57,379 nucleotides of DNA, filler included, from Sphacelaria rigidula (GCA_964200075.2; 3 parts of 3 records of this genome joined end to end with filler, not necessarily neighbours in it); one strand, 5' to 3'; positions 28,601-57,379 are shown, counted from the first letter of the whole stretch. The notes: generated from the letters alone by a model not told the origin. Made by a program: numbers and translations.

Positions 28601-29857
28601 GTCCCTATACCGAAAAAAGGTACACTCGAGAGCGTGCAAAGACGCCGAAGTTTTCGTTGTATGTTTGGGCACCATGGACGTCGTTGGAGAGTGCGTGGGC
28701 ATGCCCGTCGCGGCACTCCGAAAAACCGCTCTTGACGAATTCACGGAAGAGGAGACGTGCGATACGGTCAAAAACATACGGGAAATCTGCGAGGCGCTTC
28801 GAGCGGAGGGGAAAAAGGTAACCATGGGGGGGGGGGGGGAATACGGAATCTTCCGTAGTTGACATACCCGTAATATCACGGAGAAAATTGTGGGCCGTGT
28901 TGCTTCTGTGATGTAGGGGTTTCGTCTGTGCCAGATCCAAACAATGATGATGATGCTTTCTGAGGGCGGAGAGGGTAGTGATATCCTCCCAAGGTTGGTG
29001 TACTCCGTGGCACGTTGGTTGGTGGGATTCTCGACGTGCAACGATTACGTTCGCAGTTTTTGCTTTTGTGCTACAGTATCATGACAGCTGCCTGTCAGTT
29101 ATGGTTAGACAGCTCTACTGTTGTGATCAACGCCGTTCAAACACTGTTCCATACACACAACAGTCGAATTCTCACCACATCCGAATATTCCCACCGGTCC
29201 GCAGGGTTAGGGTTAGGGTTAGGGTTAGTAGGTCCTGTTATCTGCTTTTGATAACAGTACATGATTCATCATTATCTAAAAAAGCAGGAAGCAGGAAGCG
29301 CGTAATTCATCCCTGAATATATCAACTCCCCGCCTCCCATAAGATCCGTGTTGATGGGGATGCGTGGTCACCGGTCAAACGACTGAGGCAAGCAAGGAAT
29401 GGGTACCCCCACCCCCCGAGAAGTAGGAAGACGAAAGTCCAACCACGCCTCATCACTACTGCACAAAACGCACCCGATGCTGTCGACAATGCAGGTGGTC
29501 GTCTGCAACGTGATGACCAGTGGGGCGGGTATCAACCGACGCGCGGGACTGGCCAAGCGTCTCAACCGCCAGCTCTCGCTTTACGTCCGTCAAGCTGAAG
29601 CAAAAGCCGACGCCTCCGAGCAACGAAAAGATGCCGACGCGATTAACCGCGCCTCTCCCGAGCCGGTGCGACTGGCCAAGCTGAACAATCCCCGATCGTC
29701 TCGTGATGACGGGAGAGCTTTCGATGGCCTGCACCTCAACGCAAAGGGCTACAAATCGTTCGCCGCGGACTTGTACGATGTGTTGGGACCCATGATGGTG
29801 GCGGTGGAGTGGAAAATCTGGAAAAGACACCTGGCAGGTGAAGGAGTTCAGCTATAG
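22623..29857 (+). CDS. SGNH/GDSL hydrolase-fold protein, 5 exons, 304 aa, N-terminal hydrophobic segment; catalytic Ser absent
   Basis: Exons 22623-22769, 25499-25609, 27265-27342, 28602-28817, 29495-29857, all phase 0, 915 nt in total. Blocks: I KVVLIGDGFAEG, II IINRGRSGSTSADW, III VVCLGTMD, V FDGLHLNAKGY. Intron 3 is GC-AG (gcaagt). Confidence 0.88.
23415..23556 (+). repeat. Dispersed repeat, homologous to 45117-45247
   Basis: AAAGCT..AACTCAACCATG...TTTCC..GGAAAAT...TGGTCAC..T..TTCCCCTACAG is shared by both loci. Confidence 0.6.
27954..27987. repeat. (GTT)n microsatellite
   Basis: Near-perfect GTT run in intron 3 of the SGNH gene. Confidence 0.8.
29203..29228 (+). repeat. Interstitial telomere-type repeat (TTAGGG)~4
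   Basis: AGGGTTAGGGTTAGGGTTAGGGTTAG within intron 4 of the SGNH gene. Confidence 0.85.
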
Positions 29858-37400: not shown

Positions 37401-40400
37401 CACTACTCCGCTAAGGTTGCAGCATGTTCCCTAGGACGGATCCTCTCGGAGGATTTCGAAAACGACGGGGATTTTCTCTCTTGTTATCTAGGTGACGATT
37501 GGCCGTGAGCCTGGGTGGTAGGTAGTTAGAGTTGAAGCTGCACAGGGTACAGAGCAATTGTGACTTTCCAGGGCTCGCCCGTGGCTCTTGTTATGTTGAG
37601 CTCTTTCTACTATCGAGATCTGCTGCCTACGGTCCCGGAGATCTGACAGTACAGATATGATAGTTTCGGACCTCTCAAAGATGTCCCTGTCGGACCTGGT
37701 CCTGTGATGGCTTCGCCTCCAGGTTTACATGTCATACAAACACTCGCTCCGCACATACAACTACAGTGGCTTCCGCATTCGACGTCATACATGTACTATC
37801 TTTATTCTTGTGGACATGCGTAAAGAATTTTCGGTCCTTCTCACCCACCCGATAGACTGCAACATGAACTCGGCGAGCTCAACCGACAGCTCCTCTGCCT
37901 CCTGCGCCCAATCGACATCGTTATGATTCACTGCTCCACCTCCACCATCGCCTTGGCTGCCGCCGTGCCCATCTCTTTTCACCCTTTCCTTTTCACTGCG
38001 GCAGCTAACACCTTCGAACCAGGCCCTCCTTGCCAGAGTCAACATAGGAGGTAGATCTTCCAACCCCTCGTCGCCTATACTCACGTTCCACGATTTCAAT
38101 GGTATGAGCGGAAGGGATGGGGCACGGGGGGTGGGACCGGGGGGGGGGGGGGGGGGGGGGGGCGCGGGTGTGTGGATGTGCATGGCAGGGACCCCCCCCC
38201 CCCCCCGCCCCCCCCCTCACAGCNNNNNNNNNNNNNNNNNNNNNNNNNNNNNNNNNNNNNNNNNNNNTTAATTAATTAANNNNNNNNNNNNNNNNNNNNN
38301 NNNNNNNNNNNNNNNNNNNNNNNCGCCGCACAACATGATTTAGCTGGACTACCTATATGGTTACCGCAAAAAGAAACGCAAGCGCGCAAACACAATCGGT
38401 AACCTGGTTGCCTAGCTTACGCAGTGAGTGGCGTGTTTTATAGCGTCATCGCCAACCGACGCTAACCCCGTCGAGGGTCCTGGGGGGGGCGCAGGGTGTA
38501 CTCATGATCATGCATGCCAAGGGGCGCAGGGTGGGTGGGGGGGGGAAACTGATATATTCCATCCCCTTGTTTCGGGGAAGGGTTTCCCTTAGTGGTCATG
38601 TAGTGAAGCCTTTGTTTCGCCACGATCGCACTCACCGTTAGGCTCGCTCCAACGCACGCCCCTTTTTTTTTGCTCTTTTCATCGGCTGTCCCAAGCACCG
38701 GCCAACTTGTAAGCACTCTTACGATCGTTCTCGATGAAACTGGCTCCCGACGGGAATGGTTCGTGTCCACCAAGCACTTGGAGCTCCTGTCTCTGGAGGT
38801 CCGCAAGGCTTGCCGCGGTGTCGGCGATATGCACCTGAAGGTGTGGGCATGTAAGCCGCGATGCTTATGGTAACTCCTACCAAGCACTGCTCGATGCGCG
38901 TGGCTCGTAATAATACGGGTACGACTCTGATCCGCGTGGCTTCATTGCCCCTGCGTGGATGGACTTTGATGGCGTGTGCGAGTGCACAGATCATATCGCG
39001 TGATGACGTCCTTTTCGCAAATATACAGGACGTGCGATTCAGACACGACTTCAACCGCAGTCTGGAAAACATGGTATCGCGTCAGGGAGTCAAGATCACA
39101 TATGACCAGTATGTCTATCGAAGGAACTCCAAAACATGTGGCGACACAGGTTTCAACCAACCAATGAACTACAAACATGGTGTGGCCTGCCTCGCTGCAA
39201 AGACTTCGCTTATTGGGGCGTTCCTTCCACCAGCCTACTACTGAGGTGGTGGTATGGCCTGCCTCGTTCGAGGACCTTCCATCTTGAGAGTTGATTCAAC
39301 AAACGTCAATTGTAGGGATCGCATGGCCTGTCCAGGAAGAGAACAGTCGACCCATTGAACCAGTGAGCGCTCACGAGAACACCAAGCAGCTGGGAACTCC
39401 CACGCTTGGGATCAGTACGACAAGAACATGGGCATCTGCGCACCAAAATTGTGACACGTGAGTGACGAGGAGGATCTATCCTCCACCTCTGGTCCCCAAG
39501 CGCCGAGGCACAGCGCCATATTGAAGCAACGAACCGTATCAACTTGGTACATTCCACGAATTACAATTTTATGCAGAGCGACTTGCCTCTTGCTGCGTTC
39601 CGTCTCGAGGAGATTGCACATCGTCGGCAAAGACGCGATGGAAGTGGAGGCAAGGTCGAGTGACACGTGATTGGATGTCGTGTCTGATTGGTGGGAAGAT
39701 GGTCAATGTAGGAGGGTAGTGCCGTGTGAAAGGTGACTTTAGTACTTTGAAGACGTACAGGTAAAACGGGGTGCTGATGTCGACCATCAGGTCCGGCATG
39801 GTCGCCAGCGAAATTGCAACAAGGCCACCCAATTTCGTATTTTGTTCACTGTGAGAGTGGTCACAACTGTGTGCAAGAAACAGTGGGGTTACGAGGCCCG
39901 GAGTTCGAGGAGGCAGGTCCAACGGTACTGCTATGTCTGAGCGCACGGCCGCTGGTGCGTACAATACCACGAAAGAGGTGAGAAAGAATGAGCGGACTTC
40001 CCGGCCGCCCTTTGGACGCTCTCCATCTGATGCTGGGGTGCATGGCAAACGACGGCGGCTCGTTTCTTTTCGTGGCAACCAGGAGCAGCGACACCAGAAG
40101 CCAGACCAAGAACCCGGCTGTTGGCGTGGACGGTAAAATCTTAGACACAAAACAAGCCTGGCACCATGTTGACCCTGGCAAATCGATTCCGACCGCAGCC
40201 CTAAAATGAAACGTCGAGGGAGGCTCTGAATCTCGGGAACAAAACTCGCTTGGGCTGCTTGAGCAAAGCACCCGTATTCCAACGAATTGAAAACCACAAG
40301 ACATTTTGTGCTCGGCGCATAGCATTCGCCTCTTTGTCAGGTTACACATAGATGCGCCATGATCTGCGCGGTGAGCACAACAAAGCGCTACGCCAGTTTT

Positions 40401-40435: not shown

Positions 40436-40863
40436 TGTTTTGACTTTTACGTTGTGACTGATGAAAACAAGACGTTCCACTCTTGTTGACCGTTTCCAGT
40501 CCTGCTCGTAGCACGCTACTTCCCCTTTCCTCAACCAAGCCCCAGAGGAGAGCAGATCTCTATAATCAATACCTCTCGGTTAGCCAAAAGGAGTACACGG
40601 TACTACGGCTTCCCACGGGAAAAAACGTGAACACATCACAAACATACCGCTATTAAAAAAACACTACCAATAAAAGATGATCCGCAAAGCCACAAAATCA
40701 ACGCAATGAGAACATAGACTGCACACCACCCCTAACTCAGCCTAAACGCACACAAGAACCAACAACCATGAGATCAATGAAGACAAATAAGTGATGATAG
40801 ACATCTGAGTCTGGAGCAGATATACCATTCATGGCCACCGGCCATCCATTCACCACCACTCGT

Positions 40864-43800
40864 CTACTCTTCTGTACCATCTATCGCAGGCGCAAGGTAG
40901 TATCGTATGTAACCAAAAGTGCCGATCGGGTATTCCATAACAATTGGGTTATCCGGGGTCATGGAAATGGTGACGGTAGGGCCCAGCGGCGTGGCCTTGG
41001 TGAAGAGAGTCAGGTAGCTAAGCGTGACCCTGAGCGTTACTGGTTCCTCCATCGTCACTGTTACTTTTTCCTGGTCGTGGGTGTGTAAAATCGTGCGTTT
41101 GGGGGTGGGCAGGGAATAGGCGGGTCGATGACGTGTTTCTCGGTTGGTACTTTACGTTGAACCACATAGAATAGGTGCGCAGAAACTGTTCCGAAAAACG
41201 AGACAAGAAGCGTCCCGACAAAAATCACACCGCAAGACGCCAAGAAAAACAAGGGGGGTCAGCGTTACCACTGAGCCAGTTCGAATATGTTTTATGTTTG
41301 GTCGGACCTGCAATCATGATTCACCGTGACGGGGGAGGGGGAGGGGGGGTGCGAACAACTCAAGAGTAAAGAATCAAGCCTCATCTGTCCAGCTTGTTAT
41401 TGTTTTATATTCGACCACGTCTTGGGCTGTAAAAAATGAACCTTGTGTGTAGATAACGAGATTGCAACCCAACGAGAGTGATTCAAATGTGCACAGACTG
41501 ATCGTCGACTGCGGCAGCTCCGCTTCAATCACCCGGAGGGCACGCTCGAGCTGCTTTTATTAATCAGATGCCCAATGGTACCCGCTAAGATGTCGTTTCG
41601 AAAAGAAAACGATTACTTCGATTTCGTTGCGAAACAAATTCCAGTGGACATTACTTACTTGTCTCTCAGAGCAGCAAAAGACTACGCTTTCCCACGGAAA
41701 CGTACCTCCTCCCTGTCCACCGAGCTGTTGTTTTGGACCATGATGCTGCCGACGCCGAGGCTTCTTGATACGGAGAACGTCACCCCATCCTTGTCGCACT
41801 TAATGGTGCACGTTTTCCCCATCACAGCCAAGTCTTTCACGATTCGCGCGAATTCTGCGGATGGCATCTGTGCGTACCCGGGGGAGGGGGCAACACAGGG
41901 AGGAGGAGGAGGAGGGTACGTTGTTGACACTGGAAATCAACACATGATGTTTTGCACTGGAGGAGACGGTGCAAGATTACTGTGAGGGCACGAGACAACA
42001 CAGCACGGGAGGAAACAAAAGACTCGACGGTTTCACATCAGATTGAGGTAGGCCGACTGTCGCCCGATTGCGAGTACTGGAAACCAACTACTGTCTTACT
42101 AGGTAACACTGCAGGGGTGATTGGACACCGAAGTGCGTGAAGACGATTCTGTCTTGAATAGAGTCGTCCGTTCAGGGCGGGGTCTGTTTGTCCTCACCTG
42201 GATCGTGCAGTTGTACTCTGTCTTTGGGATGCCCAGTTGCTCGTTGTCGATGTTTATGGCTTTCAGCTTGAAGCCCGAGATTCGTTCGTGGTCTGTGCGT
42301 GCAGAACAAACACAAGGAAATACATCAGTACCATGTCACAACAAAAACGACCATCATGTATTTGTAGGCGTTCGGCACTACTGCAGGCTTCACGCACGAA
42401 CTACACCCACATGGGTGCTGCAATCCCCACACACACAAAACACTATCCGAGTGCTTTGGTGCGGGGATGATCATTTGCAGCACTTGATACTCGAGGCTAG
42501 CTGTCCAACGTCAGCCTCTCAGACGGCCAACCCTTTGACCGCGACGATAGTCCCATCTGTTCAACCGTCATCATTTTGACATGAAAATTGAAATCGTGAC
42601 TCAGATGACCTACCTTAGGGGTCAAGGGATCGCCTTCGAATGCCAGAGTGGGCAATCTCTTAAGCCGGCACCGTAAACAGCCATGAAATGAATGCAAATA
42701 TAAGACTCAGAGGACCCACCCTGGCGGTCAAAGCGTTAATCCTCTCACCACCTGTTGTTTTGTCATGCCGACCCAGATATTTGTAGCCCGATTTACAATA
42801 TAAGATTTGTACTGAGCAGACCACTAGTTGGATGCTAATGCATGTGGGGTTCCTGGGGAGGATTCGGGACATTTGTTTTTGGTGAGAACATGACACCTAT
42901 ACAGAGAAGATCGTTGCCAAGCAAACGCCGCGCGTGATTACTATTCGCTCATGAGTCACGACCATGGGCATATTGCCGTCTCAGCCCAGAGATGTTCGCG
43001 CCAGCGGTACATATGGTCATGCATAAGCAACAGCGTGGACCCACTTCAGTACATACCAGCTTGGAGAGCTTCCTGCAAAGCCCTGGTGCTGATTTTCCCG
43101 ATGAAAAGTATGGACATCGCTGTACTGGGCAGTGCTGCATTATGTAGAGTACCCTGCGACTGGTGGCACAGCGATTTAATACAGGTTCTAGAATAGTGGT
43201 GGGGGGGGGCGTCAACAACCCGGCATAATCACACTATGATCAGACTCAGCACTACACTGATGTATAGTGCAATTACTTTTTATGAGTGCAATGGATCGGG
43301 CTTGTGATGAGTGTTTTGACCAAAATGTGGTTGGACCCCATAGTTTACTGTACGTTGTATAGCACCACCTCTACCGCTCTACCGCTAGTTGCATACGGTA
43401 CTTCGCGGTGGAGTTTAGGCCAACTCAGCGACCATACTTCACTATTGTAGAAGACCTGGTTTCCATGCGGACGATAATATTCGTACCTTGACGAGGCTGA
43501 GGCACAGAGCCTCAACCCGCGTGCCGCGGCATGCGCACTGTAACCGTGACTTTGGTTTTCGAGCATTTCGTCGATAGGATCATTTATTGTGGCCGTCACC
43601 AATCTCCATCTGTACGCAGATCGAGGGAACTCAAATCGGGGAACGCCTATTATGGTCCTCAATTTGGCCCAAATCGGGGAAGCTCCGATCGGAATGTCAC
43701 GATGTGAGAAATGGTTTCCCCGAATCTGATTCCAGATCGGGGAGAAATCGCCTATTATGGCCCACAATGTGGCCCAAATCGGAGAAGCTACACTCGGGAT

Positions 43801-46800
43801 GTCACGATTTGAGAACGACTTTCCCCCAATCTGAGCCCAGATCGAAGGAAATCGCGCATTATGGCCCCCAATTTGGCCGATATCCTGGAAGCTCCAATCG
43901 GGAATATCACGATTTGAGAACGGCTTTCCCCGAATCTGAGCCCAGATCAGAGGAAATTGCCCATTATGGCCCCCAATTTGGCCGATATCCTGGAAGCTCC
44001 AATCGGGATGTCGCGACATGAACGGCTTTCCCCGAATCTGAGCCCAGATCAGAGGAAATTGCCCATTATGGCCCCCAATTTGGCCGAAATCCTGGAAGCT
44101 CCAATCGGGATGTCACGATTTGAGAACGGCTTTCCCCGAATCTGAGCCCAGATCTGGGGGGAATCGAGGTCCCCCCAATCCGTAGGAAGTGACGTACGTA
44201 CAGTTACGTGCGGTGATAGGGCAGTAGGTGTTTGATAATCTTGCAACCGCAGCAGCAGAGAGTACCGCGACAGCACAGGCAGTGCCTGTCCGCTCTAGCT
44301 GCTGGAGCAGCTCCGCACGGGGTTTGACAAGCAGATAAGAAGTGTTGACGCCGTACCCTGCGGTGATGGTGGTATATTATGCTGCGCTGTGCTGGCGTCT
44401 GTATCACCATAACGAATGGTACTGTACTATGCTACCCTTTGTTTTCCCTGCACTCGCAGGGTGGTATACGGCACTGCACCCGTGAACTCTTGTCGCAATA
44501 CCGACTGTACCATCATGTATTACCACACGGCATTATCGTGCACTGTGATGATGGGACTGTGCTGTACTGTAATACACCCTAGGGTACCACGGTTCGACGC
44601 TGTTCTGGAAGGATAAGTAACACCCGGATTGTTCTTCGGCTTCATTTTGAACGCGATACCACCCCCCTGCAGAAAATGGCCCTTCGTATACATGACTATT
44701 TCAATTAGGTCTGTGAGACCATTATGGAGCGCCTACAAATCTGACTTTCGCAAATATGACATACCCCGGCTTTGCACAGATTGGATTGTCTGCAGATTCG
44801 GGATTCGTCTCCATAGTAAATGGTCCAACACCCTCTCGTTTATCCCTATGACAGTGCGCGTCGTCTCGGAACAGTGTCACAGGCTGACGGTCCAGGGATA
44901 CACGGAGCTCTACAGGGAGCAGGGCGATAGTTTGTGACAGGGGAGTAGGGGCCTGTTCGCAGCATACCCTGGACGATAGATTATATTGTCAAAAATGTGC
45001 TGCGTACAGTATGGAATATGTTCCCTGTTGCAATAGGCGCAATAGTTGATACTGTACGCAGTACACTTTTTGACAATTTAGTATATCGTCCAGGGTGTGG
45101 TTCGCACAACAGCCGAAAAGCTCAGTAACTCAACCATGTGTGTAAAGAAGTTTCCCACGGAAAATGCCAGGAACGAAACCCAAGAGGAGCGGAGTGGCCA
45201 TTCTGACCGATCACTGCTGTACAAATGGTCACATTATTCCCCTACAGGTGACTGCAGATGGACTACTTTACTGTCTACCCGTATTTCTCATGTTCGTCAT
45301 AACAAATCAACCAGAGATAGTATGGGTCCAAAATAACGTGGCTTCTACTCTGCTCGTGGTCCATGCCGGTTTCGTGACCCCTCATGTGTTGCCTGCATAG
45401 CTTAACATTGTTATGGGTCGGAACAGGGAGCGGTTTTGGCTACTATTTCGGGAAAGTGCGCACGACCACGGTATGCGGAAGAAATGGAGCCTACATGAGC
45501 CAATCAGTATCAATCACAAGTACACGCGTCACCTCGGAATGACGACTTCGCTTACACAAAGGATAATATAATTTTAGTACGTCCCAAAGGAAACCTGTGA
45601 CTCATGTTGCTGTGCACCTGTACACAGGGTCATAACAGGAGAACAGAAACTGCTGCTCGTGTTCTTGTGCCCCTCTTATTGCAGTATGTTGTTATACCGA
45701 TCTGTCAACGCGGCTAACTCGGCAACGAAGCGGATGATTAGATTGCGGTTTCTTGCGTGCGCTTCCCACACACCCAATCTAGGCCACCATGTTTGCGTCT
45801 TTCTTCACGCGTGACACTAAGCCGCACCAAGCCGAAATGTTATACGAAGTAGAAAACATGTGTTTTTGTTCTTTCAATTTTCGGCTTTTGGGGTCCGCTG
45901 TGGCCAGCGCTCTCGAACTGGTCCGCGCTCGAGCTCCACTACTAGGAGAATGAGTCGGTGGCATTCCCCCTCTCCGCCTGCAAGGCAAGCATCGAGGAAT
46001 ATATATAATCGCCGATCGCAATCCTGATCAAAAACACTCAGAGCACCGACGTACCGACGGGGGCAATAACGCTCATCGAGCTTGTGGTCATCAGGGTGTT
46101 TCCGTTGAGGGAAGGCAGCTCCCTTCGCATTCAGTCATCCAGACGACGGTTGGCTGCCGCCTCCAAGGTTCACACCGCGCCGGCGCAACCCGTCACGCGG
46201 GGGGAGACGGCTCTTCAAAAGGTGACCGTCAAGACCAAGAGAATGTTGGCTGCGGCGGTCGACAGGCGACTCTTCAAGCGCTACGACTTGGATGCCCCGG
46301 GCGACGAGCCCGATTTCCCCTTCGAGATGGCAGCGAGTATGAATCCATTCCTGGCCACGCTTTCTCTTCCTGCCCTCCGTCTGCAGCACCAAGGCGATGG
46401 CTGACTGCGTGAGGGCGGTTGTCAAGAAGAAGATCGTCGACCTGATGACGAGGATGGCTGAGGAGCGTGGATCAAGCCCTGAGCATAGTACAGTGGCCAG
46501 CCCAGGAACGGTGGTGCCGACGCGAACAACGCTCGCCCCAAGAAGGAGAACGTCTCAGTGGGGGTCAGTGCCTCCTGATCTCCACAACCTCGAAGGCAGC
46601 ATCACAGGAAGCCGCGCGCTTATTTAAAAGCAGCATGTTCGGGGACACCCCCATGGACCAACCAGTGGGAGCGGCACCGAAGACACAACGAGAGCTATGC
46701 GCGGAGGAATTTGACCGCTTCGTGCTCGCTGGTCAGGAGGAGAGCCTTGCTACCAAGCCCATCCGGCTTATGCTCCAGCACTGGTCCTCAGAGGGCTCCC

Positions 46801-49800
46801 GGACGTATCCGCATGTGGCGCGCGCAGCCCGGGTGCTACTCTCCATCACGGCATCTTCGGCCGTCTTGGAGCGCGACTTCAGGACCGCAGGTCGGCTGAT
46901 CACCGGATGCCGCAACCGCTTGGATGCCGCGTACAACGAGATGGTGCTATTTCTCCACCGTAGCTACGCCGACATGCCGGATGAGGCACCGATGCTGTCG
47001 GACGCCCAACCGTTGGCCGCTGTGCCTGAGCGGCTGAGCAACTCTTCCGGAAGCACCAGCAAACTCTCCGAGGGCCCCGTACAGGAGGATGGTGGCGACA
47101 GCGATGATGAGGAGTTCAGCGCGGGGGGAAAAGTTGTCAAGCAAGGAAATGGCCACGTGGCTGATGGATAATTTGAAAACCGCCGAGATGAGGGGGTGTC
47201 TATCTGTTTGCCTGCTTAGGAACATGAACCGTGTTCGAAGGCGAGATTAAACGCAGTTGCAGCGGCCTCGATATCTTTCGTTCTTGGATTGCTGTTGTTA
47301 GAGCACGTTTCCGTCGACGGCGGGGGAGTGTTCAGTACGGGAGGGTTTACGGCCGCCACGCCATGACAGTCGATCATACTCGCGCATCTTGAGGCAAGGG
47401 GGCAGCGGGGGGCGCCTGTTCCCGAATTCCGCACTCAAATCTGATCGTTCCTGCACTATAATGATATCTCATCAAAAATGAATAGTCCGTTTTTGTTCCG
47501 GCGAAGGTGTTGGTGAATGGACTCGGGCGAGGTGAAAAGTCATTACTTGTGTGAACTCTGAATCACGATCGGCGATAGCCGACGGTTCAATTAGTTGATT
47601 CTTCGAATATTCCATTTACTTTCATCGGTAGATGTAAAGGTATGTCAGTGCACTGTTTTTTCGTTTACGCGTAAGATTTAGTATTCTGAAAAACGCCCTC
47701 ATTTTCACTCCGATTTCCCGCTGCCGAAAATGGAGAAACCGATTCCGACGTCAACCCTCAACGTTCAGAACAGAATGGCCCAGTCTGGCTGTACTCCAGG
47801 GCGTATCTCGAGAGCACCTTGGGTTATCTCGGTGTGCATGACACCAGCAAGTATTTGCGGGGGAGGGTGGGGGGGTACGCAAACTAGTATTGTACTTCAA
47901 GTTGTGTGGTTTGAGGTGTGTTTTTGGAACATCCATCATGCGTGTAGTGACTTCTTGGTTCGTCACATGAAACGAATTGTACGGTCCCCCAGGGGGCGGC
48001 GATTTGTTCCCGCTTTCCACCCGTGATTCATGAGTCATGAATCGTGGGCACATGGTTTCCACCTTGCCTTCATACGACATTATCATCTGTAAATGTGTCC
48101 CACCTTCCCGTCATCCGACATGAATCAAGGATGCGTATTCTCCCCTTTTCATTGTGAATCCATGGATCATGGATGCATGGTTCCCACCTTGCCTTCATAT
48201 GGCATGAATCATGGGTACACATGTATCACCTTTTGGTTCATGCGGGATGAATCATGTGTACATGTTACCCACCCTTGAGTTCATGCGGGATGAATGATTG
48301 ATGCATGTCTCCTACCTTCAATTCATACGGCATGAATCACTGATACATGTCTCCTACCCTTAAGTTCATGCGGGATGAACCGTGAGTACACGAAAAAAGA
48401 GACAGCTGCCCCGTTATTTAGATAGGACGGAAGTATAGTACAGAATTACTGGGCAATCTCATCAAGTAGCACAGGCAGAGTTTTTGTACACCTGCGGGGG
48501 GGGGATCGCTGCCCAAGGGTTAAGGCACCGCGGACGGCGGAGGACAGGAGCAAGCAAACAGATCCTGCAGGCTTCCAGGTCGGGCATTATTTCCACCCAA
48601 ACACAACAAAGCCTCGGACGCCTATCTCATTCGACGCACTGCTTCCCAGGGATCAAGCCACCGCGATGCGGGTAACCACAATAGTGGACGGACTTCAACA
48701 AGTCAAGAACATGTAACATGCAACAGCCGAGCCCCATACCCCCGGTGGGACCGCCACGGGCTCCAGCCTCAGCACCAGCAGTAAGTTATGCAGCACCAGA
48801 TACATTCGTATTGCAACCGAATAACCTGCAACCCAGATCAGAAGAAGGCGGACTACGCTTTGACGAGGAAAAGGCAGCGGTGCGAATCGTCAAACCACCA
48901 CAGGACCAGCACTGCGCGGAATAGTTTTTCAAGCGCTGGTTCCGAACCTCAACTCCAGTGAATAAGGGCGTGGAGGCGGTGGAAACGGACGCGGCTCGGG
49001 CGGTGCATGAGGATACGGGCTTCGCGTTGCGGGGCCAGCATCGTCGAATATAATATTCGAGTAATTCGGCGGACGTCATATCTGGCGCCCTGGGCATCAA
49101 GTTCTTCGGGCAGTAGGATCAGAGTCAGTACGGGCGGTATTGGGTGAGTCTCCTCTGATAGAATACCACAACACTGCTGTAGAACTCATTTAAGCAATGG
49201 CTGCCTTGAAGCGATTCGCAGAAACATGGTGTCGGTGAGCCATTCCCTGTGATCGCAAAAACGTAGCCCGATCGAAGGCATCTACACGACAATGAGCACT
49301 GTGAGTAAGTACAACAACAGTACGAGTTCACGAAGCAGTCAGCACGCATGCAAAATATATAGCTGTGACTGGATGAAGGATCGGTAGCAAATGGCATGGC
49401 AACACACGCGTAGAGTTCCATATGATCGACGCCACGGAGCAGCAACAAGCAACGGACATGACGTCACGTTAAAGTCCTTACCGAAATATTTGAAGAAATT
49501 CAAGAGTCCCATAACATTAGTGAAGAATAGCTGGGATTCATTCACGTTTCCAGCATCACTCTACACGCACAAGGCCACACTTACGCTTCATATACCAACT
49601 GGATCCCTGATTCACACAGGTGCTGTGGGTACGAGACCCGTACATGGGGATGGTTTTGTAGGGAATTAAATTATTTGCGCGAGCACGATTATGGCCGAGC
49701 GTTCAAGATCGGCACCCGGCGAACACTGAAGACCAGTTTAAAATCAGGCAAATAACTAAAACATGGGACTATCATGTTTCACTTTACTGCAGCACAAACA

Positions 49801-52800
49801 CACTCACGTCCGCGCTCGTGTGCTGCAGCTATCACTGTTCTGTGGTGCGTTCAGACTTTGCGAAGACGGTTTGGCCTCCGCTTAGATGGTCTGAGCTGCT
49901 GTTTTGTTGTGTTCGTCTCTCTGTAAAACATAGTATCAGTCGGGACGCAGTGCTGTCTATACACTTGACTGTTGAAAACTTCATGTTACCCAGACCCATC
50001 ATTTGGGCGATACCGAACATGGCTGGTTAAAGACACACAACCAGCGCCGGTACACACCGCTCGACCGGCTGGGCCAGACCCCGTGCTCCGATGAAAGGAG
50101 CAGCCCACAACACAGTGCGGATATACTGCACCGCCAGGGTACTGCTGGCGCCCGTCGGCATGGCGGCCGCTTCCGCTGGCATCGGCGCCAGCGCTCGCGG
50201 CCACGGAAATACACAACCAGCCATACTAAGATGGGGATATACCGATACACGAGCATCGCAATGACGCCCTGCGGCGGTAATGTACGACTCGCTGCCTGCT
50301 TGTCTGCTTGCGGCTTCGCTTCTCTGCTGGTGTTCTATTCGTCCCGATGCTACTGTTCACTGCTGTACTGTATTACGTACACTACAAGTGTGACTCGAGT
50401 GTGCCAGCCCATCACAAGCATTTTTCACTACATAATTCACTGTGAAGGTTGCATCTCATTGGCGCTGGATTCCGCCGATTCCTTACTCAAGGGCCTCTGA
50501 TTGGTTGAAATTCCCATTTCACTAAAAAAATGTGCCCCCGTGTATGGGCGTCGTGCCCCAGTGTAGGGCAGGGCATAGCACTGCATTCGCACCCACTGAG
50601 CCCCTTCTTCACACGGGCGCTGCACAACGGGGCATGACACGGCATTCACACTCACTGAGTCCTTGTTCATGCAGGGTCATAGCACTGCAGTCAGATGACT
50701 TTCTCGTCATACCAATGCAGCAAAATGGTTTCCGCTTCGCGATATGCATCCGCTGAGTCCCTGGGTCACCAGGCGCTGCAGTGAAAGGCATGGCAACTCA
50801 TGGGTTCATCCAATCTTGCCGCTTCGCAACATGCACTAGCTGAGTCCCTAGGTCACCATGCGCTGCAGTAAGAGACATGGCAATGCGAATATACAATATT
50901 TCCACTTCGCAACAGGCACTCGCTGAGTCCCCGTGTCACTAGCCGCCGCAGTGAAAGACATGGCAATACATGGGTACAATATTGCCGCTTCGCAACACGC
51001 ACCCGCTGAGTCTCTACGTCACCAGGCGCTGCAGTGATTAGGATGGCAACGCATAGGTACAATATTTCCGCTTCGCAACATGCACTCGCTGAGTCCCCGG
51101 GTCACCAGGCGCTGCAATATGAGACATGGAAATGCAAAGGTGAAATATTTCCGCTTCGCAACAGGCACTCGATGAGTCCCTAGGTCACTAGCCGCCGCAG
51201 TGAGAGACATGGCCATGCATGGGTACGATATTTCCGCTTTGCAACTTGCACCCGCTGAGTCCCTAGGTCACCAGGCGCTGCAGTAAAACACATGGCCATG
51301 AATAATTACAAAATTTCTGCTTCGTAACATGTACCCGCCGAGTTCCTAGGTCACCAGGCGCTGCAGTAAGAGACATGGCAACGTATGGGTAAAATATTCC
51401 CGCTTCGCAACAGGTCGCCAGGCGCTGCAGTGAGAGACATGGCAATGCATCGGTGAACTTTTTCCGCTTCGTAACAGGCACTCGCTGAGCCCCTGGGTCA
51501 CCAAGCGCTGCAGTGAGAGACATGGCAATGCACAGGTCCAATCTTTCTGCGTTTTGATTGATTTATCGATTAATTGTCGCACTTTCACTGACCCCCCAGG
51601 GATCCCGCCGTGGTTACATGATAGTGGGCAAATATATATTACACGACACGGCGGGCACCGAAATTCTTGTCACCACGGACGGGGCGGCCGGGTGAGCCGA
51701 GGAGGACGGTTCGGATACTCTCGCGCCCACTTTTGTGGCGTCGCAGGCGTGTAAATTTGGGAAGCGATTGTGTGCCAGGTCAGCTAGTGACTGGGCGCAC
51801 ATCCAACGACGTGATTCGACCGCTCGTACGACTACCATGTATGTCTCACAGAGGAAAACGGCGCTCTCGAAGGAAGAGGGAAAATCAGTGGATGGCGGTA
51901 TAGACGTTGAAGAATTGAGGGCGCTGCTGAAACAAGGAGAGCTGTTTAACCTGGCTGGCGGTAAGAAACTTTTGGTGTAATAATTCACCACCGCGCCTGT
52001 AGTGTCGGACGATCGTAACCCGGGTATATTTGAGCGATGTCACGGAGGAGAACCGGTGATAACATATGTCCCCTTGATGCTGAGGCCCTGGGTAATGGAT
52101 CGAACGCGCAAAGAAGCAGTGCCCCTGGGAGAAGAAGTGATCACTCTCTTCTACAACGATATTATGGGTGGATAGGCGTGAAGGAAAGTATGAAATTCTG
52201 GATTCGACGCTGCTACTCAAGTCAGTACAAGAGAACTGCTTGGTATACTGTGCAATGGCCTCTAGCCCGCTGCCGCTGACTAGTCGGCCAGGGCAAAATG
52301 TAGCTTTTGACTTTTTAGGACCTTTGCCTCACCCAAGAAGGGGAACAAGCACATTTTTCTGATGGTTGATCTCTTCAGTTGGCACGCGGAAGCTTACGCG
52401 ATCACTCCTGAAGAGCACTCGGCAACCGGCTGTGCTGCAATCATCGTGGGTGACTATGTGCCTCGATGAGGTTGCCGGCACGCATTCTTGTCGGGTCGGG
52501 GACTGAAGGTCACTTCCGCGGTGTGTAGGTCGGTGTACGAGATGATGAGTGCCGCGAAACGGTTCACGAGCTCGTATCATCCCCAGACGATGAGATGGTG
52601 GAGAGGCTTCACCATACTCTACGTCAAATGCTGTCTTACTTGGTGGTGGATGATCAAAGTAACTGCGACGAGTCTCTGATGCATGCGATCTCAGCACACA
52701 ACAATAATATCAGCAGGAGGACCGAGATGTCTCCTGATGGAGTGCGTATTGGACGGTACCCGCGAATGCCAATGACCGTTCTGGAGGGTCGCGGGGTGCG

Positions 52801-55800
52801 GGGGCACGCAGATGTGAAGGCCGATCAGTTGGATTATCGTCAGCTGATGAGAGAACGGCAGGTGAAGGCATTTCAACTGGTGAGGCAGGAGGATTTTCTA
52901 ATTAACGAAACACGAAGCCAGAACCAGAGCATTGATGAAATGGCCAACCGCCAGCCCAAATGGGAGGAAGGCCAGTGAGTGTTCAAGTATGACGATGAAA
53001 GAACCATCGCCGCGGGGGTTAAGGCGGTAAAGGTGGCGGCAAGGACGGCACGAACGTCCTTGGCGCTGTCAGCAAAGCTGGCTGAGTGTGGGACGGGGCT
53101 CTACAAATTTTTGTTCGCGGGACCGGGGGTAACCACCGAGGATGAATAGGTGGGTAAATATTCTTTGTTGCTGGAGATCCGTTGGAAATAGCCGGGGGTT
53201 AACATGAACTCTAGGGTGTTAGTGGCGAGGTGCAAAGGGTATTACAATCCCCACGAGGGAGCGGACAAGCCGATATTTGTGCCTTGGGGACTTGTCAGTC
53301 CGTGATGAAAAAATATTTCGGTTGTCACCCCCTCTACATTTGACGGCGGAGGACGTCACGATGGAGTTGGGCACACACCGGATATTGCCCGAACAAGTGG
53401 TGAAGCACAGGTTGTCCTAGAGATTGGGAGGGAAGCCGGCCGTACAATACCTCACCTATTGGGGCGGGATGGAGGCTCCGAGGTGGGAGCACGAAGTCGA
53501 CCTTGAGCAGTACGAGTCGACAGGTGATGTTGAAATATTAGCTGAGTGATCCGGTGCAGCTTAAGGGTGACAACGTGCAATACCGAAAATATCGCATCCA
53601 TTTGTCGAGGCGCATAACGGCGCACGAACGGGGTGGTTATTATGTGACGCCAGGGTATAAGGTGTCGGATCGACGAAGGGATGGGTCAGACGTATACAAC
53701 CCTGACATTGTCGGCTCTTGCGTTTATTTCAAAACGGTCTCCACAGGTTGGCAGCTGTCCGAGGTGGTGGGTCTGGAGGAGGACCCAGGTCAGCGGGAGT
53801 ATCCACATACTCTCCGCATGATGACTTGGGGCGTAAGTACGATATGCGTCTCAAGTGGGCGGCGCTCCATGAGCGCCGCAGCCGACCGGGGGGTTGGTGC
53901 TGGCACTACCATGTGCTGCCCAACACGGTATGGTATTCCGCGAACGGTTAGTGATGGGCCGGGGCGATTCGAGGTGGAATTGGATGTGGTGGTTGAGAGC
54001 TGGTGTTTCTTGGGAGGAACTGGCAACCATGGGGTGAAGGGCCACCCTGAGCGTGGCGAAGGGAGCTGTTTGGAGCACCGTGAATCTGCTAGCAAAGACG
54101 AGTAGAAGAAGTAGGCAAATAACAAAAGTAATGGCTGGAGCTCGTAGAGGACTTCATTCCCATCTTCGTTGTTTGCTTGTGGATTTCTCTTGGGTGAACT
54201 GAAATCTGGAGCCGGGGTTACCACCTCCTTCAATTTCCCCACTCCTTGCGCGGCGGATATATCAAGAGGCGGTGACTCCGGAGGGTTTATTTTGCTATCT
54301 ATTTATTGCGCCTCGAGTAGGACTTGAGCAGCTTTACTGTACTCCCATCGGGTGTTCTCTTCTGGATTTTTCGTGGTGGTTTGAATATCGAAGCTGGAGT
54401 CGTCGTCCCCTTCCCCACTCCTTGTGAGGCGGACGTATCAGGAGTCAGTCGATGATCGGAGACGGGATTGCTATTGTCAACTAGGTGAAAATCAATAAAA
54501 ATAATGAGGATAATAGAGAAAATAAACAAGCGGAGGCCGGGGGCTACCAAGTGAGCTCACTTCAGGGCTATGTTGTTCACTCAAATCTCAAGTCGGTCCT
54601 CGAACCAACACTTTACGGTCACAGGATTGGCTGATGTCGTGAGCTCAGTCTTCAGTCTGGAATCTAGGCCGGGAAACAGGGGATTCACAGACGGTGAGTG
54701 TGGGTACAGGGGGTGGTAACGGAGTAATGTGAGATAATCAATCAATATGTGGAAGATGACAGGAATGCGGTAAATGCAGGATAGCAGTTCCAGGACAGTC
54801 GACAGCAGACAGTCTTGACTTCGGGGTGGGGTTCACGAACCGAGAGTCTAGCCCATCGCCAGGGGTGTCTGAGGACTGGGGACCTTGGTGGCCATATCAC
54901 GCATCAAGTAACTGTTTTAGTGGCGGGTAGAATATGGGTAACCGGAGTGCAGAGGATCTTTTGTAGGTGTTTGGGGTGCGAATTGCTGAGTTTGGCACGC
55001 CCCACCTTCGTCAGTTCTCCCCAACCCCTCAGCAAGTGGGCTGCGTTTAGTAAGGAATCTGGCGTGTGTAGAAAAATATCAATAACAATCAATTCACCCC
55101 AAGCTTTCGGCATCTTTTCTCCGGCAACATCCACACTCCTACGAGGAAACTTCTCCTGCAACAGACTCAGCAGCTCGCCTCAGCTCTGGGTGGTTAGTCT
55201 ATCAAAGACCCACCGACCTAAGAATTTATCGGTGAGAAGCAGGAATCTCAGTGTCTCAAGACATGGGCAATGCCCCGATCATGCGGCACAGCCAGCTACC
55301 TGATGCTTGACAGTCTTCCTCTTATCACATGGGCGGACCCGCACTAGCAAATGCAGGGACCCTGCTGTGGTGCGGAGTACTGTATGAGCGGAAAAGCCGC
55401 GGCCGCCAATAGTACAGCAAGAACGGCCGTTGGAGTTGAGTTTTGTTTCGGCTCGAAATCAACCGAGTGTCCCCGCAGTTCGGGCATTTATTTCACCACC
55501 TATCAGATCTTCTCAAGGTTCCGCTCGGACCCCAGCTTGTCATCCGAAAGTTTGGTTGTTATCAGTTTTTTTCCTTCTGTCAGGCATACCTGTTGGTGGT
55601 ATCATCTTCACTGCTGCACCTGTAGCTTGCTGAGATCCAGCGCACTGAGCAACACTAAAACGAGTATAATATCATTTCAACTGTTTTTTTTCACCAGTTG
55701 GTGAGCTTTGTTTCCCGGCGAGTGCTACTGACTGTGGGTCATGTCGACTCACAGAAAACAACCCTCCTGCGAGTGACAATGAGGGTATCTCCGCTGTCGT

Positions 55801-56957
55801 CACCAATATATGTAAGGCGCTCCAGAGACTCGCAACGCGTGACAATCAAACTAAATTTAGGGTAACCTCACCGTACAGGAGCAATACTTCTACAGCACTG
55901 CCAACCGTCAAGAGTATTCCCGTACGACGTACAGCAAGACTGCGGAGAGTACAGAATGCAAGAGCATCCAGATCGTTCCTGCCCGCGCTAGCCCCCATAG
56001 TGATCATCCTTCACCTCGGCATGAGAGCGAGGCAAACATGACAGTCGCGCACGTGCCTGTACACAAATTTGACTTGATGAAAATCAAAACATTTAAAGCG
56101 CGCACGGCACAGCACACACGGCACCGCACCTCACTCTTTATCGTGTACGCGGAAAGCGATACGAGTATGGTGTATCCGAGCGCCTCTGAACTTCCCTGCG
56201 ACAGCTTTTACATATTCACCTTCCTTCATGATGGTGAGGGTGTCCGCCGAGTCTTCGGCCTTGAGCGTCACTGTATCCTCGTTTCCCACGTATTCCAAGA
56301 TTTCTGACATGTTGGTGATTGGCAAGCCCAGCGACAAGCTTCGGTCACACCTGATGACAATAATCCATCGGCAGGTGGGCAGGGAGCTCAGTATCACGGT
56401 GGATGACAACGTTGCACAGACAGGATCCGACAAAACAGCGCGAGAGAGTCGAGATGTGCGAACAGACAGGGAGCGTGCGCATCCGGCACTACTGTGCGTG
56501 CAAGGTTTTTCCCGTGCTCGGTGGTGCCGGGTGTGTTCCATCTGTAGTGTTTCGCGCCAAAACCATGAGGGCCTTGCTGTGTGCCGTGCTGTAGTGAAAA
56601 CATAATGGTATGCGATATTGTGATTCGGTCATCACATTTCTCCGAAAGCAGGATGCCAACATCCCGACACCCACACGATGCCAAAAACTAGGCCATTACT
56701 ATATTAGAAAACGTGTAAAACATCGAGCCACCTGTTAGTTTCCAGATCGGATTGAACTCAATGACACAGAAGGAGACCTAGCCAACAGGGCCTACACACC
56801 TATAGTAGTTGAAGCCGTCCGACCGGATCATCACCGCGCACAAAGAAACGTGACGGGGGTCCATGGCCTGCATGCAGATACCCGACTCCGAGCAGTCTAG
56901 GTTGGCTTCTGTGGCCAATTCGCGGACTGCTTCGATGATATTCTTGAGAAGAGAACC
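40864..56957 (-). CDS. PCNA: Proliferating cell nuclear antigen (sliding clamp), divergent paralogue; first ~8 codons probably outside the window
   Basis: Exons 56957-56800, 56350-56220, 42292-42198, 41867-41706, 41070-40864: all GT-AG, phase-consistent, 753 nt, no internal stops. Motifs QAMDxxHVSL, YRCDR, QLGIP, MPSAEFARI, KATPL, GYIRYYLAP. Confidence 0.93.
43613..44184. repeat. Tandem array of ~5 units of 102-105 bp with imperfect inverted termini (probable non-autonomous TE)
   Basis: Unit ATGGCCCCCAATTTGGCCGATATCCTGGAAGCTCCAATCGGGATGTCACGATTTGAGAACGGCTTTCCCCGAATCTGAGCCCAGATC.... Ends TACGCAGATCGAGGGAACTC / GAGGTCCCCCCAATCCGTA are loosely inverted. Confidence 0.8.
44967..45095. mobile_element. 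~130-bp CCCTGGAC MITE (opposite orientation to the 33254 copy)
   Basis: TA|CCCTGGACGATA...TATCGTCCAGGG|TG, with the same internal GCAATAGGCGCAATAGT and inverted TACTGTACGCAG motifs. Confidence 0.8.
46135..47171 (+). mobile_element. hAT-superfamily transposase remnant (C-terminal dimerisation domain), frameshifted
   Basis: LQHWSSEGSRTYPHVARAARVLLSITASSAVLERDFRTAGRLITGCRNRLDAAYNEMVLFLH matches the hAT dimerisation consensus W...YPxLA..A...LxxPASSA..ERxFS.AG...xxRxRL. Upstream FEMAASMNPF lies in another frame. Confidence 0.88.
48020..48390. repeat. Degenerate tandem array (~40-55-bp units)
   Basis: Reiterated CATGAATCATGG..CATGT..CCACCTT..TTCAT(A/G)CGG. Confidence 0.65.
50570..51535. repeat. 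~83-bp minisatellite, ~11 diverged units
   Basis: Consensus CGCTTCGCAACAGGCACTCGCTGAGTCCCTGGGTCACCAGGCGCTGCAGTGAGAGACATGGCAATGCATGGGTACAATATTTC, recurring every ~83 bp. Confidence 0.88.
51590..54105 (+). mobile_element. Ty3/Gypsy LTR retrotransposon remnant (integrase + chromodomain-like), with stops and frameshifts
   Basis: Integrase core: PGQNVAFDFLGPLP, MVDLFSWHAEAY, FTSSYHPQT, MVERLHHTLRQML. Chromodomain-like segment EQVVKHR...VQYLTYWGG...WEHEVDL at ~53390-53510. LTRs were not identified. Confidence 0.85.
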
Positions 56958-57379
56958 CTGCCGGAAAAATTGCCGGCACAACAAAGCAAAAATCGGACAA
57001 ACAGCGAGCAGAGAGGTTTGAAAACTAGGGGCCTCGAAGCGGATGTAATCGCCCGGGACATCGCCATACAAAACACTTTCAGAGTGACCCTACGATAAGG
57101 TGTGGGGGGGGTAATTTGGGTTACTTCTTACGGGAAATTCCAAGTCAAATCGTCGTTGAAAGCAGCAAACCACAGCTGTTTAGAGTGAGTCTTACCCATC
57201 GGTTACAAGCGCGTTTGAACAACAGTTAGTTACTGCTTTCGACGGCGATTTGAAGTGGAATTTCGTGGAAGAAATGGCCCAAAATACCCCTTTCCCCGCC
57301 CCCACTCCCCTATCATGCTCCGTCTCGAAAGGGATGCGTGGTGCATGGGCCAATAAACAAGGCACACAAAAAAAAAGAA

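Follow-up and report, generated by a model that had tools for sequence, protein, structure and literature searches.

Gene Model and Family Membership

The PCNA gene that we examined in Sphacelaria rigidula (hereafter copy B) is most likely a DNA-level duplicate of the species' PCNA gene, with a reading frame that is unbroken so far. Elsewhere in the genome there is another PCNA copy (copy A), which is expressed and closer to canonical PCNA, and the amino acid replacements in copy B fall on conserved and variable sites alike. We consider copy B most likely to be free of constraint: probably a pseudogene, young and unprocessed, in which the open frame could have lasted by chance, or at best a dispensable, weakly used copy. 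We infer that it makes no functional clamp.

Copy B was modeled from splice sites in the window (the whole stretch of DNA that was analyzed, 57,379 nucleotides long, filler included). Its coding sequence consists of five minus-strand exons, which join into 753 nt (250 codons plus a TAG stop) with no internal stops; all acceptors are AG and all donors GT, so that the eight visible sites are all canonical, and the four introns are spliceosomal. The exons and the adjoining 3′ region are (substitutions in human PCNA numbering):

56800-56957, reverse strand: exon 1 as visible in the window; codons equivalent to 9-61; acceptor cag/GG; Pfam PCNA_N, E 8.4e-17, profile positions 9-60
56220-56350, reverse strand: exon 2; carries K77E, K80E, and C81Y; PCNA_N, E 5.3e-11, profile positions 62-102; its last seven bases are the site of a two-codon deletion
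42198-42292, reverse strand: exon 3; interdomain connector region; carries L118A and M119I
41706-41867, reverse strand: exon 4; K164 kept; carries G173R; PCNA_C, E 9.5e-13, profile positions 13-66
40864-41070, reverse strand: exon 5 with the TAG stop; carries F207V, A208T, R210S, and K254A; PCNA_C, E 1e-16, profile positions 68-127
40729-40863, reverse strand: probable 3′ untranslated region; alignable to the transcript of the expressed copy, and more diverged than the coding part

Four of the five exon translations thus match PCNA_N or PCNA_C, and the two Pfam domains (PF00705 and PF02747) occur in order, with all scores above the curated cut-offs. Exon 3 (31 aa) has no Pfam match; it shares 69% identity over 32 aa with the PCNA of Choristocarpus tenellus (P0003) in a tblastn search. 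The model corresponds to the NCBI S. rigidula protein CAM9189630.1 (P0001; 222 aa, N-terminally truncated), which matches human PCNA (1axc) with an E-value of 8.4e-74; the NCBI model begins at an internal methionine equivalent to position 37, so that the first 36 positions are absent from it. The five in-phase exons without stops that the first-pass annotation described are therefore confirmed by the splice sites and the 250 codons closed by TAG. Its "full-length PCNA fold" holds as far as the PCNA domains are concerned, but not for the full length, as our model begins at the equivalent of G9.

A start codon and the first eight codons of copy B are absent from the window: the contig stops 422 bp upstream of exon 1, ending together with the window, whose last N-free piece is 19,056 bp long, as is the contig on record for P0001. 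No in-frame ATG lies between exon 1 and the stop codon upstream of it, and the start motif M[FYL]EA[RKQ] is found in none of the six frames of the window. Since the acceptor of exon 1 is cag/GG, an earlier exon with the ATG and about eight codons is expected upstream, beyond the window. We also considered a degenerate start just upstream of exon 1, where an in-frame F-E-A and a Q are spaced as in the canonical N-terminus. This candidate was dropped: the stretch has no ATG and no GT donor, there is a good acceptor at 56958, and the 5′ 45-101 letters of the expressed copy do not align there at a likeness of at least 80%.

A Second, Expressed PCNA Copy

Three sequencing runs (X1, X2, and X8) contain spliced PCNA contigs at a depth of 500-1200, which align to the exons of copy B with 5-12% other letters. 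No run containing the sequence is recorded as RNA, and we call these three RNA-like by guess, the one support being the spliced joints, which have no counterpart in the DNA-like run X5; X1 and X8 are possibly one data set filed twice, as their contigs are of equal size. Each of the four exon junctions is bridged by one contig per run in X1, X2, and X8, and by none in X5. Compared with the window, the contigs differ at 13 of 158 letters in exon 1 (aligned over 56803-56960), 15 of 127 in exon 2, 10 of 163 in exon 4, and 7 of 131 in exon 5. At the end of exon 2, 13 letters replace the last 7 of copy B (6 extra bases), giving the canonical F-E-S motif. Because the two-codon deletion is absent and 5-12% of the letters differ, the contigs derive from another expressed copy, the abundant spliced PCNA transcript not matching the copy B locus. 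This agrees with the earlier proposal that copy B is not the main replicative PCNA. X1, X2, and X8 also contain long low-depth contigs identical to parts of the repeat-filled intron (no other letters over 854-1191 bases). No bridging contig with the exact exon sequence of the window is listed in X1, X2, or X8, in contigs that drop rare variants.

The two copies differ at 45 of 579 coding letters (7.8%), whereas 40729-40938 (mostly 3′ untranslated region) has 34 other letters and 5 gaps in 210. Over 40729-41069, record 1 of X1 has 5 gaps and differs at 41 letters; record 7 of X2 has only 7 other letters over 40939-41069. To turn exon 4 of copy B into a canonical sequence would take 15 base changes or more, yet only 10 letters differ from copy A. 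Some of the peculiar residues of copy B must therefore be present in copy A too, and K77E, K80E, or R210S may be among the shared ones; copy A is thus a close relative of copy B and not the gene of a foreign alga.

No second Sphacelaria PCNA is among the protein matches listed (best 120 of 3849 to P0003, and best 120 of 529 to P0001), where the protein closest to copy B has 76% identity. A protein search with exon 5 at longer lengths gave 12 matches among 31 candidates, with no other Sphacelaria protein; P0001 is alone in its protein cluster, and Sphacelaria is absent among the 13 named members of the Ectocarpales PCNA cluster (26 members, 11 not listed).

Inner-Ring Charge

Comparison of copy B with 164 aligned PCNAs (human numbering) revealed glutamate at position 77, where all 164 have lysine; glutamate at position 80, where 162 have lysine and two have arginine; and serine at position 210, where 161 of the 164 have arginine. 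The K164 modification site, a lysine in 164 of 164, is kept. These three substitutions and the retention of K164 are as the first-pass annotation had read them. It had also pointed to K14N; the substitution is there, but it means little, because position 14 is poorly conserved (lysine in 85 and glutamine in 65 of the 164, and methionine in the Ectocarpales representative). The net charge of the four inner helices is -1 in copy B, against a median of +5 and a range of +3 to +5 in the 164 PCNAs, none of which is so low, and the inner ring is indeed de-charged.

Positions R20, R146, K149, and K217 are still basic. The residues named at the DNA interface are K20, K77, K80, R149, and K217 (PMC5234079); of these positions, copy B has a basic residue at 20 (R), 149 (K), and 217 (K), next to the changes K77E and K80E, and R210S comes in addition. 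The first-pass annotation had placed all of the changed residues in the DNA-contacting channel; a search of the passages of that paper gave no mention of R210. In the partner-binding regions, copy B has the same G-I-P connector motif and Y-Y-L-A-P tail as human PCNA.

Pattern of Replacements

Fifty of the 250 residues of copy B are absent from 13 brown-algal PCNAs, the set against which lineage-specific replacements were scored. Sorted into four conservation classes, the replacements number 11 of 57, 9 of 46, 14 of 66, and 16 of 80 sites (0.193, 0.196, 0.212, and 0.200), which gives a chi-square of 0.066 against the conservation-blind expectation. The pooled private changes of seven canonical brown-algal PCNAs served as a control and are spread 0/2/17/23 across the same classes (Fisher p = 5.7e-5); in these proteins conserved sites are almost never changed. 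Because its replacements ignore conservation, copy B is most likely free of protein-level selection.

The same picture emerges from single positions. Among 56 near-invariant columns (at least 98% conserved), copy B deviates at 11, compared with a median of 0 and a maximum of 4 in the 164 others. The near-invariant residues changed outside the channel are S43, C81, F103, L118, M119, G173, F207, A208, and K254, of which we take L118 and M119 to lie on the subunit-interface strand; K77, F207, and K254, all lost in copy B, are invariant in 164 of 164 PCNAs. Core and interface residues are hit as often as the channel. The two-codon deletion, at positions 105-106, is unique to copy B, none of the 164 PCNAs being gapped there. 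Inner-helix basic residues were lost at 4 of about 9 positions, where 50 hits placed at random on 250 residues would take away about 1.8, a weak enrichment. The equal replacement rates and the changed invariant residues outside the channel do not sustain the earlier idea of a neofunctionalization aimed at the DNA-facing ring; the three lost channel charges are what random decay of a lysine-rich surface would give.

No disabling lesion is present in the part of the gene that can be seen (250 codons and 8 splice sites). An open frame is no great surprise: if 47 random substitutions had accumulated neutrally, the probability of no stop would be 0.25 and that of 16 untouched splice bases 0.36. Joint survival would be about 0.09 with frameshifts uncounted, which is low, not decisive; copy B was also chosen for study because it looked intact. 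The site pattern points toward a dN/dS near 1, which the first-pass annotation had named as a ground for rejecting its own reading. Under a rough model, the lower A-B divergence in the coding part than in the mostly 3′ untranslated stretch would put dN/dS on the B lineage nearer 0.5 than 1, and part of the history of copy B may have been constrained. The expressed parent or sister copy that goes with an unprocessed pseudogene is present in the form of copy A.

We propose the following course of events. The PCNA gene would have been duplicated at the DNA level, with copy A staying abundant, spliced, and nearer canonical. After the duplication, copy B would have gained replacements regardless of site conservation, and these would take in channel lysines and arginines, the buried core, the subunit interface, the C-terminal lysine, and the two-codon deletion. 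The de-charged inner ring would then be a by-product of drift, in a frame not yet broken.

Ancestry and Genomic Surroundings

In a maximum likelihood tree of 25 rows, copy B is placed inside the brown algae (support 100/99) as sister to the Ectocarpales (99/94), on a terminal branch of 0.29, compared with 0.015-0.054 in the seven other brown-algal rows; this placement points to a fast-evolving host gene. An origin from a phaeovirus or giant virus was rejected, since copy B nests within the host brown-algal PCNAs (in a tree built without viral PCNAs), and is also opposed by the four spliceosomal introns. Scans of viral contigs, which detect close relatives only, returned no relatives, and none were found in metagenome contigs. 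Our literature search returned nothing on the PCNA of Sphacelaria rigidula or on brown-algal PCNA paralogues.

The gene sits among repeats:

42293-56219, reverse strand: intron 2; 13.9 kb, repeat-filled, with several very high-copy stretches
46449-47171, forward strand: open reading frame of a hAT transposase remnant inside intron 2; Dimer_Tnp_hAT, E 1.6e-10
43644-44154 and 50729-51414: tandem arrays inside intron 2
57134-57379, unstranded: very high-copy repeat; from about 180 bp upstream of exon 1 to the end of the contig and window

The summed depth of the intron 2 repeats in X5 is up to 322,790, compared with about 63-75 for long exact contigs. For the upstream repeat, the summed X5 depth is 163,645 in the bin 56827-57379; the exact X5 contig ends at 57163, with numerous loose ends at positions 57134 and 57168. 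Such a setting, with 13.9 kb of repeats in one intron and the high-copy repeat close to exon 1, fits decay.

Alternative Explanations

Copy B could instead be a functional, neofunctionalized clamp subunit, forming mixed rings with copy A or acting as a life-stage scaffold; we regard this as unlikely, though several features speak for it. Copy B has an open frame, undamaged splice sites as far as they are visible, and a deletion that preserves the frame. It has kept K164 as well as parts of the partner-binding regions (the G-I-P connector and the Y-Y-L-A-P tail), and R20, R146, K149, and K217 are still basic. At two channel positions lysine gave way to glutamate and not to a neutral residue, taking the net charge below that of all 164 PCNAs, and copies A and B are less diverged in the coding part than in the mostly 3′ untranslated stretch. 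Against it, replacement is as frequent at invariant as at variable sites, and near-invariant residues away from the channel (S43, F103, L118, M119, G173, F207, A208, and K254) were changed as well; the deletion occurs in no other PCNA of the 164, the loss of inner-helix basic residues is weakly enriched, the window shows neither a start codon nor a first exon, and the sole bridging contig for each junction and run is that of copy A. A narrower version, which we find distinctly unlikely, has copy B translated into a PCNA-fold protein with a charge-stripped channel, serving either as a platform that does not slide or as a subunit that modifies rings formed together with copy A. The conservation-blind change would then reflect release from sliding and polymerase contact, with the frame and gross fold still under selection.

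It is improbable that copies A and B are two forms of one locus, such as U/V gametologues or very divergent haplotypes, of which the RNA-like runs would have sampled mainly the other one. Repeat-rich surroundings and long introns, as in non-recombining regions, would suit such an arrangement, as would the fact that only the A form is seen spliced. But 0.24-0.26 of the sampled words of 40600-42400 are found in X1, X2, and X8, the runs with A-type spliced contigs, by our estimate above what the transcript of copy A alone would give. The stretch is also present in DNA-like runs of two samples (shares of 0.93 and 0.68), and a sole PCNA of one sex with changed invariant sites is hard to square with an essential function.

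That copy B is the only, fast-evolving replicative PCNA of the species and the A-type contigs come from another organism in the cultures is very improbable, even with no second Sphacelaria PCNA among the protein matches listed and P0001 alone in its cluster, since the A-type contigs, the deepest on these exons (500-1200), are just 5-12% off copy B, which itself differs by about 25% in protein from other brown algae, and an essential clamp is not expected to lose K77, K80, F207, and K254.

If copy B is the decaying duplicate that we favor, the event is an ordinary one: a housekeeping gene was duplicated, and the copy is seen at a time when no mutation has yet disabled it. It would still matter for annotation: the only S. 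rigidula PCNA among the protein matches listed, CAM9189630.1, is the aberrant copy B, and copy A is not among them, so that comparative or phylogenomic studies using CAM9189630.1 as the PCNA of the species would take on its long branch and be misled into seeing a "loss" of DNA-binding residues. More generally, a pattern that looks functional, such as a de-charged channel, can come from undirected decay, and the spread of replacements across conservation classes is a cheap test. Were copy B a functional clamp after all, eukaryotes would have in it a rare example of a clamp paralogue that arose recently and has an acidic channel.

Comparison with Known Systems

The nearest known relatives of copy B are the canonical brown-algal PCNAs of Ectocarpus siliculosus (CBJ25497.1/D7FVX7, P0018), Pylaiella littoralis (P0017), and Choristocarpus tenellus (P0003). 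Copy B shares their two-domain architecture, has 70-76% identity to them over 250 residues, belongs to the same clade, and keeps K164 and most partner-binding motifs. It differs from them in its 50 private residues, a terminal branch about 5-20 times longer, a charge of -1 against about +5 in the channel helices, the two-residue deletion, and the first eight codons, which are not visible in the window.

Heterotrimeric clamps, such as crenarchaeal PCNA1-3 and eukaryotic Rad9-Rad1-Hus1, are built from PCNA-fold subunits with differing surfaces, a heterotrimer subunit being among the roles that the first-pass annotation suggested for copy B. Each of those subunits is ancient and has stayed conserved in its family, whereas copy B is a recent offshoot of PCNA, about 8% of coding bases away from copy A, with no sign of conservation of its own. 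Arabidopsis likewise has two PCNA genes in one eukaryotic genome, PCNA1 and PCNA2, both canonical and nearly identical. Their structures (2zvv and 2zvw) match P0001 near-equally (E 2.9e-68 and 3.1e-68); in Sphacelaria, in contrast, one copy is changed at sites that are invariant elsewhere. PCNA pseudogenes occur in mammals. Unlike unprocessed pseudogenes of housekeeping genes, copy B is still without a stop, frameshift, or broken splice site in its 250 visible codons; it is like them in its expressed parent, its retained introns, its conservation-blind substitutions, and the transposons in and around the gene.

Gene Model and Missing 5′ End

We resolved a PCNA-like gene, hereafter copy B, on the minus strand of the CAXNAA020000741.1 part of the window, extending over 40864-56957. 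These limits, which the first-pass annotation also gave, coincide exactly with the start of exon 1 and the end of the stop codon. Its exons are as follows:

Exon 1: 56800-56957, minus strand, AG acceptor/GT donor splice sites
Exon 2: 56220-56350, minus strand, AG acceptor/GT donor splice sites
Exon 3: 42198-42292, minus strand, AG acceptor/GT donor splice sites; 31 aa
Exon 4: 41706-41867, minus strand, AG acceptor/GT donor splice sites
Exon 5: 40864-41070, minus strand, AG acceptor splice site, ends with TAG

Joined, they give 753 nt (250 codons plus TAG) without internal stops, in agreement with the first-pass annotation of five in-phase, open exons; the splice sites are canonical. Four of the five exon translations match PCNA_N or PCNA_C in the correct order above the curated Pfam cut-offs, and the 31-aa exon 3 has no Pfam match. 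A tblastn search of the 57-kb window with two brown-algal PCNAs matched these five pieces and no other PCNA-like sequence. The corresponding protein entry (P0001, CAM9189630.1; 222 aa, 'unnamed protein product [Sphacelaria rigidula]') is 100% identical to copy B in exon 5, is the sole member of its 90% cluster, and matches human PCNA (1axc) with an E-value of 8.4e-74.

The gene had also been described as full-length, a description that the visible model does not bear out: its first residue aligns with G9 of other PCNAs, the in-frame stretch upstream of exon 1 has no ATG before the next stop, and the start motif M-[FYL]-E-A-[RKQ] occurs nowhere in the six frames of the window. Since a pyrimidine-rich tract and cag directly precede exon 1, an earlier small exon is expected. 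The last N-free piece of the window is 19,056 bp, precisely the length on record for the contig of P0001, so contig and window end together, 422 bp beyond exon 1 on its upstream side. From ~57134 on the sequence is a very high-copy repeat, where the summed depth in X5, a DNA-like public run, amounts to 163,645 (long exact contigs: ~63-75); at 57163 the exact X5 contig breaks off. The lack of a start may thus reflect the limits of the assembly instead of a lesion. The NCBI model gets round it by opening with an internal Met that corresponds to position 37. The frame upstream of exon 1 (56958-57050, minus strand) carries F-E-A and Q spaced as in the canonical N-terminus, then S-L-L, with no ATG and no GT donor; this resemblance is probably chance, but could be the vestige of a former exon layout.

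A Second, Expressed Copy

We compared public runs, as contigs, with window positions 40500-57379. X5 reproduces the window letter for letter; a single contig, for instance, spans 55162-57163 without any other letter. In three RNA-like runs (X1, X2, and X8; the contigs of X1 and X8 agree in length, so these two may be a single data set filed twice), each of the four exon junctions is bridged by one contig per run; X5 has no such contigs, so the joined form is a transcript, not genomic DNA. The bridging contigs, at a depth of 500-1200, do not stem from copy B:

Differences between transcript contigs and the window
Exon 1: 13/158 letters
Exon 2: 15/127 letters
Exon 4: 10/163 letters
Exon 5, first 131 bases: 7/131 letters
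40729-40938, mostly 3′ UTR: 34 letters and 5 gaps in 210

The transcript contigs align to 40729-41069, 41705-41867, 42198-42292, 56227-56353, and 56803-56960. At the exon 2/3 join the window has 7 letters and the contigs 13, which on the gene's strand restore the F-E-S motif common to all canonical PCNAs there; copy B has a two-residue gap at positions 105-106 that is found in 0 of 164 other PCNAs. The same runs also carry low-depth contigs that equal repeat-rich stretches of intron 2 (no other letter over 854-1191 bases), and share 0.24-0.26 of sampled words from 40600-42400, where a transcript about 6% different would be estimated to share only ~3%; both forms thus appear to co-occur within one run. 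Most simply, there are two paralogous genes, an expressed copy A located elsewhere and copy B, the window's copy. Copy A was not found among the protein matches listed, so that the aberrant CAM9189630.1 is the only Sphacelaria rigidula PCNA among them. In exon 4, the 11 peculiar residues of copy B need at least 15 base changes to match any residue in other brown algae, but only 10 bases differ from copy A; some of these peculiarities therefore occur in copy A as well. For exons 1, 2, and 5 the same comparison sets no such limit (8, 8, and 5 changes needed versus 13, 15, and 7 differences seen).

Inner-Ring Charge and Distribution of Substitutions

Copy B was aligned with 164 PCNAs of 250-270 aa, drawn from 204 proteins after 40 partial, fused, or over-long rows, and also P0001, were left out.

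Residues in the 164 other PCNAs and in copy B
Position 14: K in 85, Q in 65 (M in the Ectocarpales representative); copy B N
Position 77: K in 164; copy B E
Position 80: K in 162, R in 2; copy B E
Position 164: K in 164; copy B K, kept
Position 210: R in 161; copy B S
Position 254: K in 164; copy B A

The substitutions K77E, K80E, and R210S and the retention of K164, all proposed earlier, are borne out, the three lost sites being K or R in 161-164 of the others. K14N, which had been counted as the loss of a conserved basic residue, means little because position 14 is variable. With 5 basic against 6 acidic residues, the four inner helices of copy B carry a net charge of -1, versus a median of +5 (range +3 to +5) in the 164 others, none of which is as low; the de-charging reported for the inner ring is real and extreme.

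Fifty of 250 residues in copy B are unseen at the same position in 13 other brown-algal PCNAs. We grouped sites by their conservation in 151 non-brown PCNAs:

Changes by conservation class, with pooled private changes of 7 canonical brown-algal PCNAs
98% or more: copy B 11/57, rate 0.193; canonical 0
90-98%: copy B 9/46, rate 0.196; canonical 2
70-90%: copy B 14/66, rate 0.212; canonical 17
Under 70%: copy B 16/80, rate 0.200; canonical 23

The copy B counts fit a conservation-blind expectation very closely (chi-square 0.066, 3 degrees of freedom) and differ from the canonical ones between conserved and variable classes (Fisher p = 5.7e-5). At columns at least 98% conserved, copy B deviates at 11/56, whereas the 164 others deviate at 4 at most (median 0). 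At the 95% level its deviating sites are S43R, K77E, K80E, C81Y, F103K, L118A, M119I, R149K, G173R, F207V, A208T, R210S, and K254A. In the PCNA fold these lie not only in the channel but also at buried strand positions, on the subunit-interface strand, and in the C-terminal tail. Among the basic residues of the inner helices, four are lost versus ~1.8 expected from 50 random hits, a weak excess. The changes are not aimed at the channel, and their even spread speaks against the neofunctionalization through the DNA-facing ring that had been suggested.

Phylogenetic Position and Surroundings

Copy B shares 70-76% identity with the PCNAs of other brown algae. We inferred a maximum-likelihood tree from 25 rows, of which 8 are brown-algal, 12 belong to other ochrophytes, and 5 serve as outgroups; viral PCNAs were left out. 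Copy B falls within the brown algae (support 100/99) and is the sister of Ectocarpales (99/94), the expected place for a Sphacelariales gene. Its terminal branch measures 0.29 changes per site versus 0.015-0.054 in other brown-algal rows. This position and the four introns rule out a viral insert.

Other features of the window are listed here:

1-333, plus strand: open-ended frame at the window start, leucine-rich-repeat-like by eye
19064-20147 and 38224-38323: six short N runs (44, 44, 10, 7, 44, 44), the paired 44s resembling masking or scaffold joins
~19.1-20.2 kb: open frames resembling retroelement endonuclease or reverse-transcriptase fragments by eye, with no Pfam match at E 0.01
29387-29857, plus strand: open frame that matches GDSL-like lipase/acylhydrolase weakly, at 18 bits where the cut-off is 23.6; it may be one exon of a neighboring SGNH hydrolase gene
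43644-44154: tandem array in the big intron, 105-bp unit, 4.9 copies
46449-47171, plus strand: open frame inside intron 2 that encodes the C-terminal dimerisation domain of the hAT family (E 1.6e-10), a DNA-transposon remnant; the RNA-like runs have contigs ~88% alike and an exact 981-base contig over 46739-47719
50729-51414: tandem array in the big intron, 83/249-bp unit, 8.2/2.7 copies
~43900-45600, 49500-50600, and 51200-51760: stretches neighboring the tandem arrays; very high-copy repeats, since their depths in X5 add up to tens to hundreds of thousands

Open Frame, Selection, and Interpretation

Random substitutions were simulated on the copy B coding sequence; we arrived at 47 through a rough model in which B is neutral and A changes at silent sites only, yielding the observed 7.8% difference in coding sequence.

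Survival under random substitution
30 substitutions: P(no stop) 0.40; P(16 splice bases untouched) 0.52
47 substitutions: P(no stop) 0.25; P(16 splice bases untouched) 0.36
60 substitutions: P(no stop) 0.18; P(16 splice bases untouched) 0.26

The joint chance is thus of order 0.1, frameshifts uncounted (the sole indel is in frame). An open frame by chance is uncomfortable, not rare, and less surprising since the finding was chosen for looking intact. We favor, with some reserve, the reading that copy B is a duplicate of the alga's PCNA evolving free of constraint on the protein, and probably a young unprocessed pseudogene whose acidic channel is a by-product. Coding divergence from copy A (7.8%) is below the 16%, plus gaps, of the stretch made up mostly of 3′ UTR, and the same rough model suggests that the average dN/dS of copy B would be nearer 0.5 than 1; copy B may have been constrained during part of its history. 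A working divergent clamp subunit or scaffold seems unlikely. That copies A and B are diverged forms of one locus, such as U/V gametologues, is quite improbable, and we give hardly any credence to copy B as the sole PCNA with a foreign copy A, the two sharing peculiarities in exon 4.

The copy B protein, CAM9189630.1, is unsuitable as the species' clamp, being N-terminally truncated and aberrant, and the absence of the abundantly expressed copy A from the protein matches listed marks a gap, in annotation or in assembly, that ought to be closed. A full-text literature search found no paper on PCNA in Sphacelaria. In passages of PMC5234079 that make no mention of R210, the DNA interface of PCNA is given as K20, K77, K80, R149, H153, and K217, and single mutations among K20, K77, K80, R149, and K217 strongly cut initiation by DNA polymerase delta.
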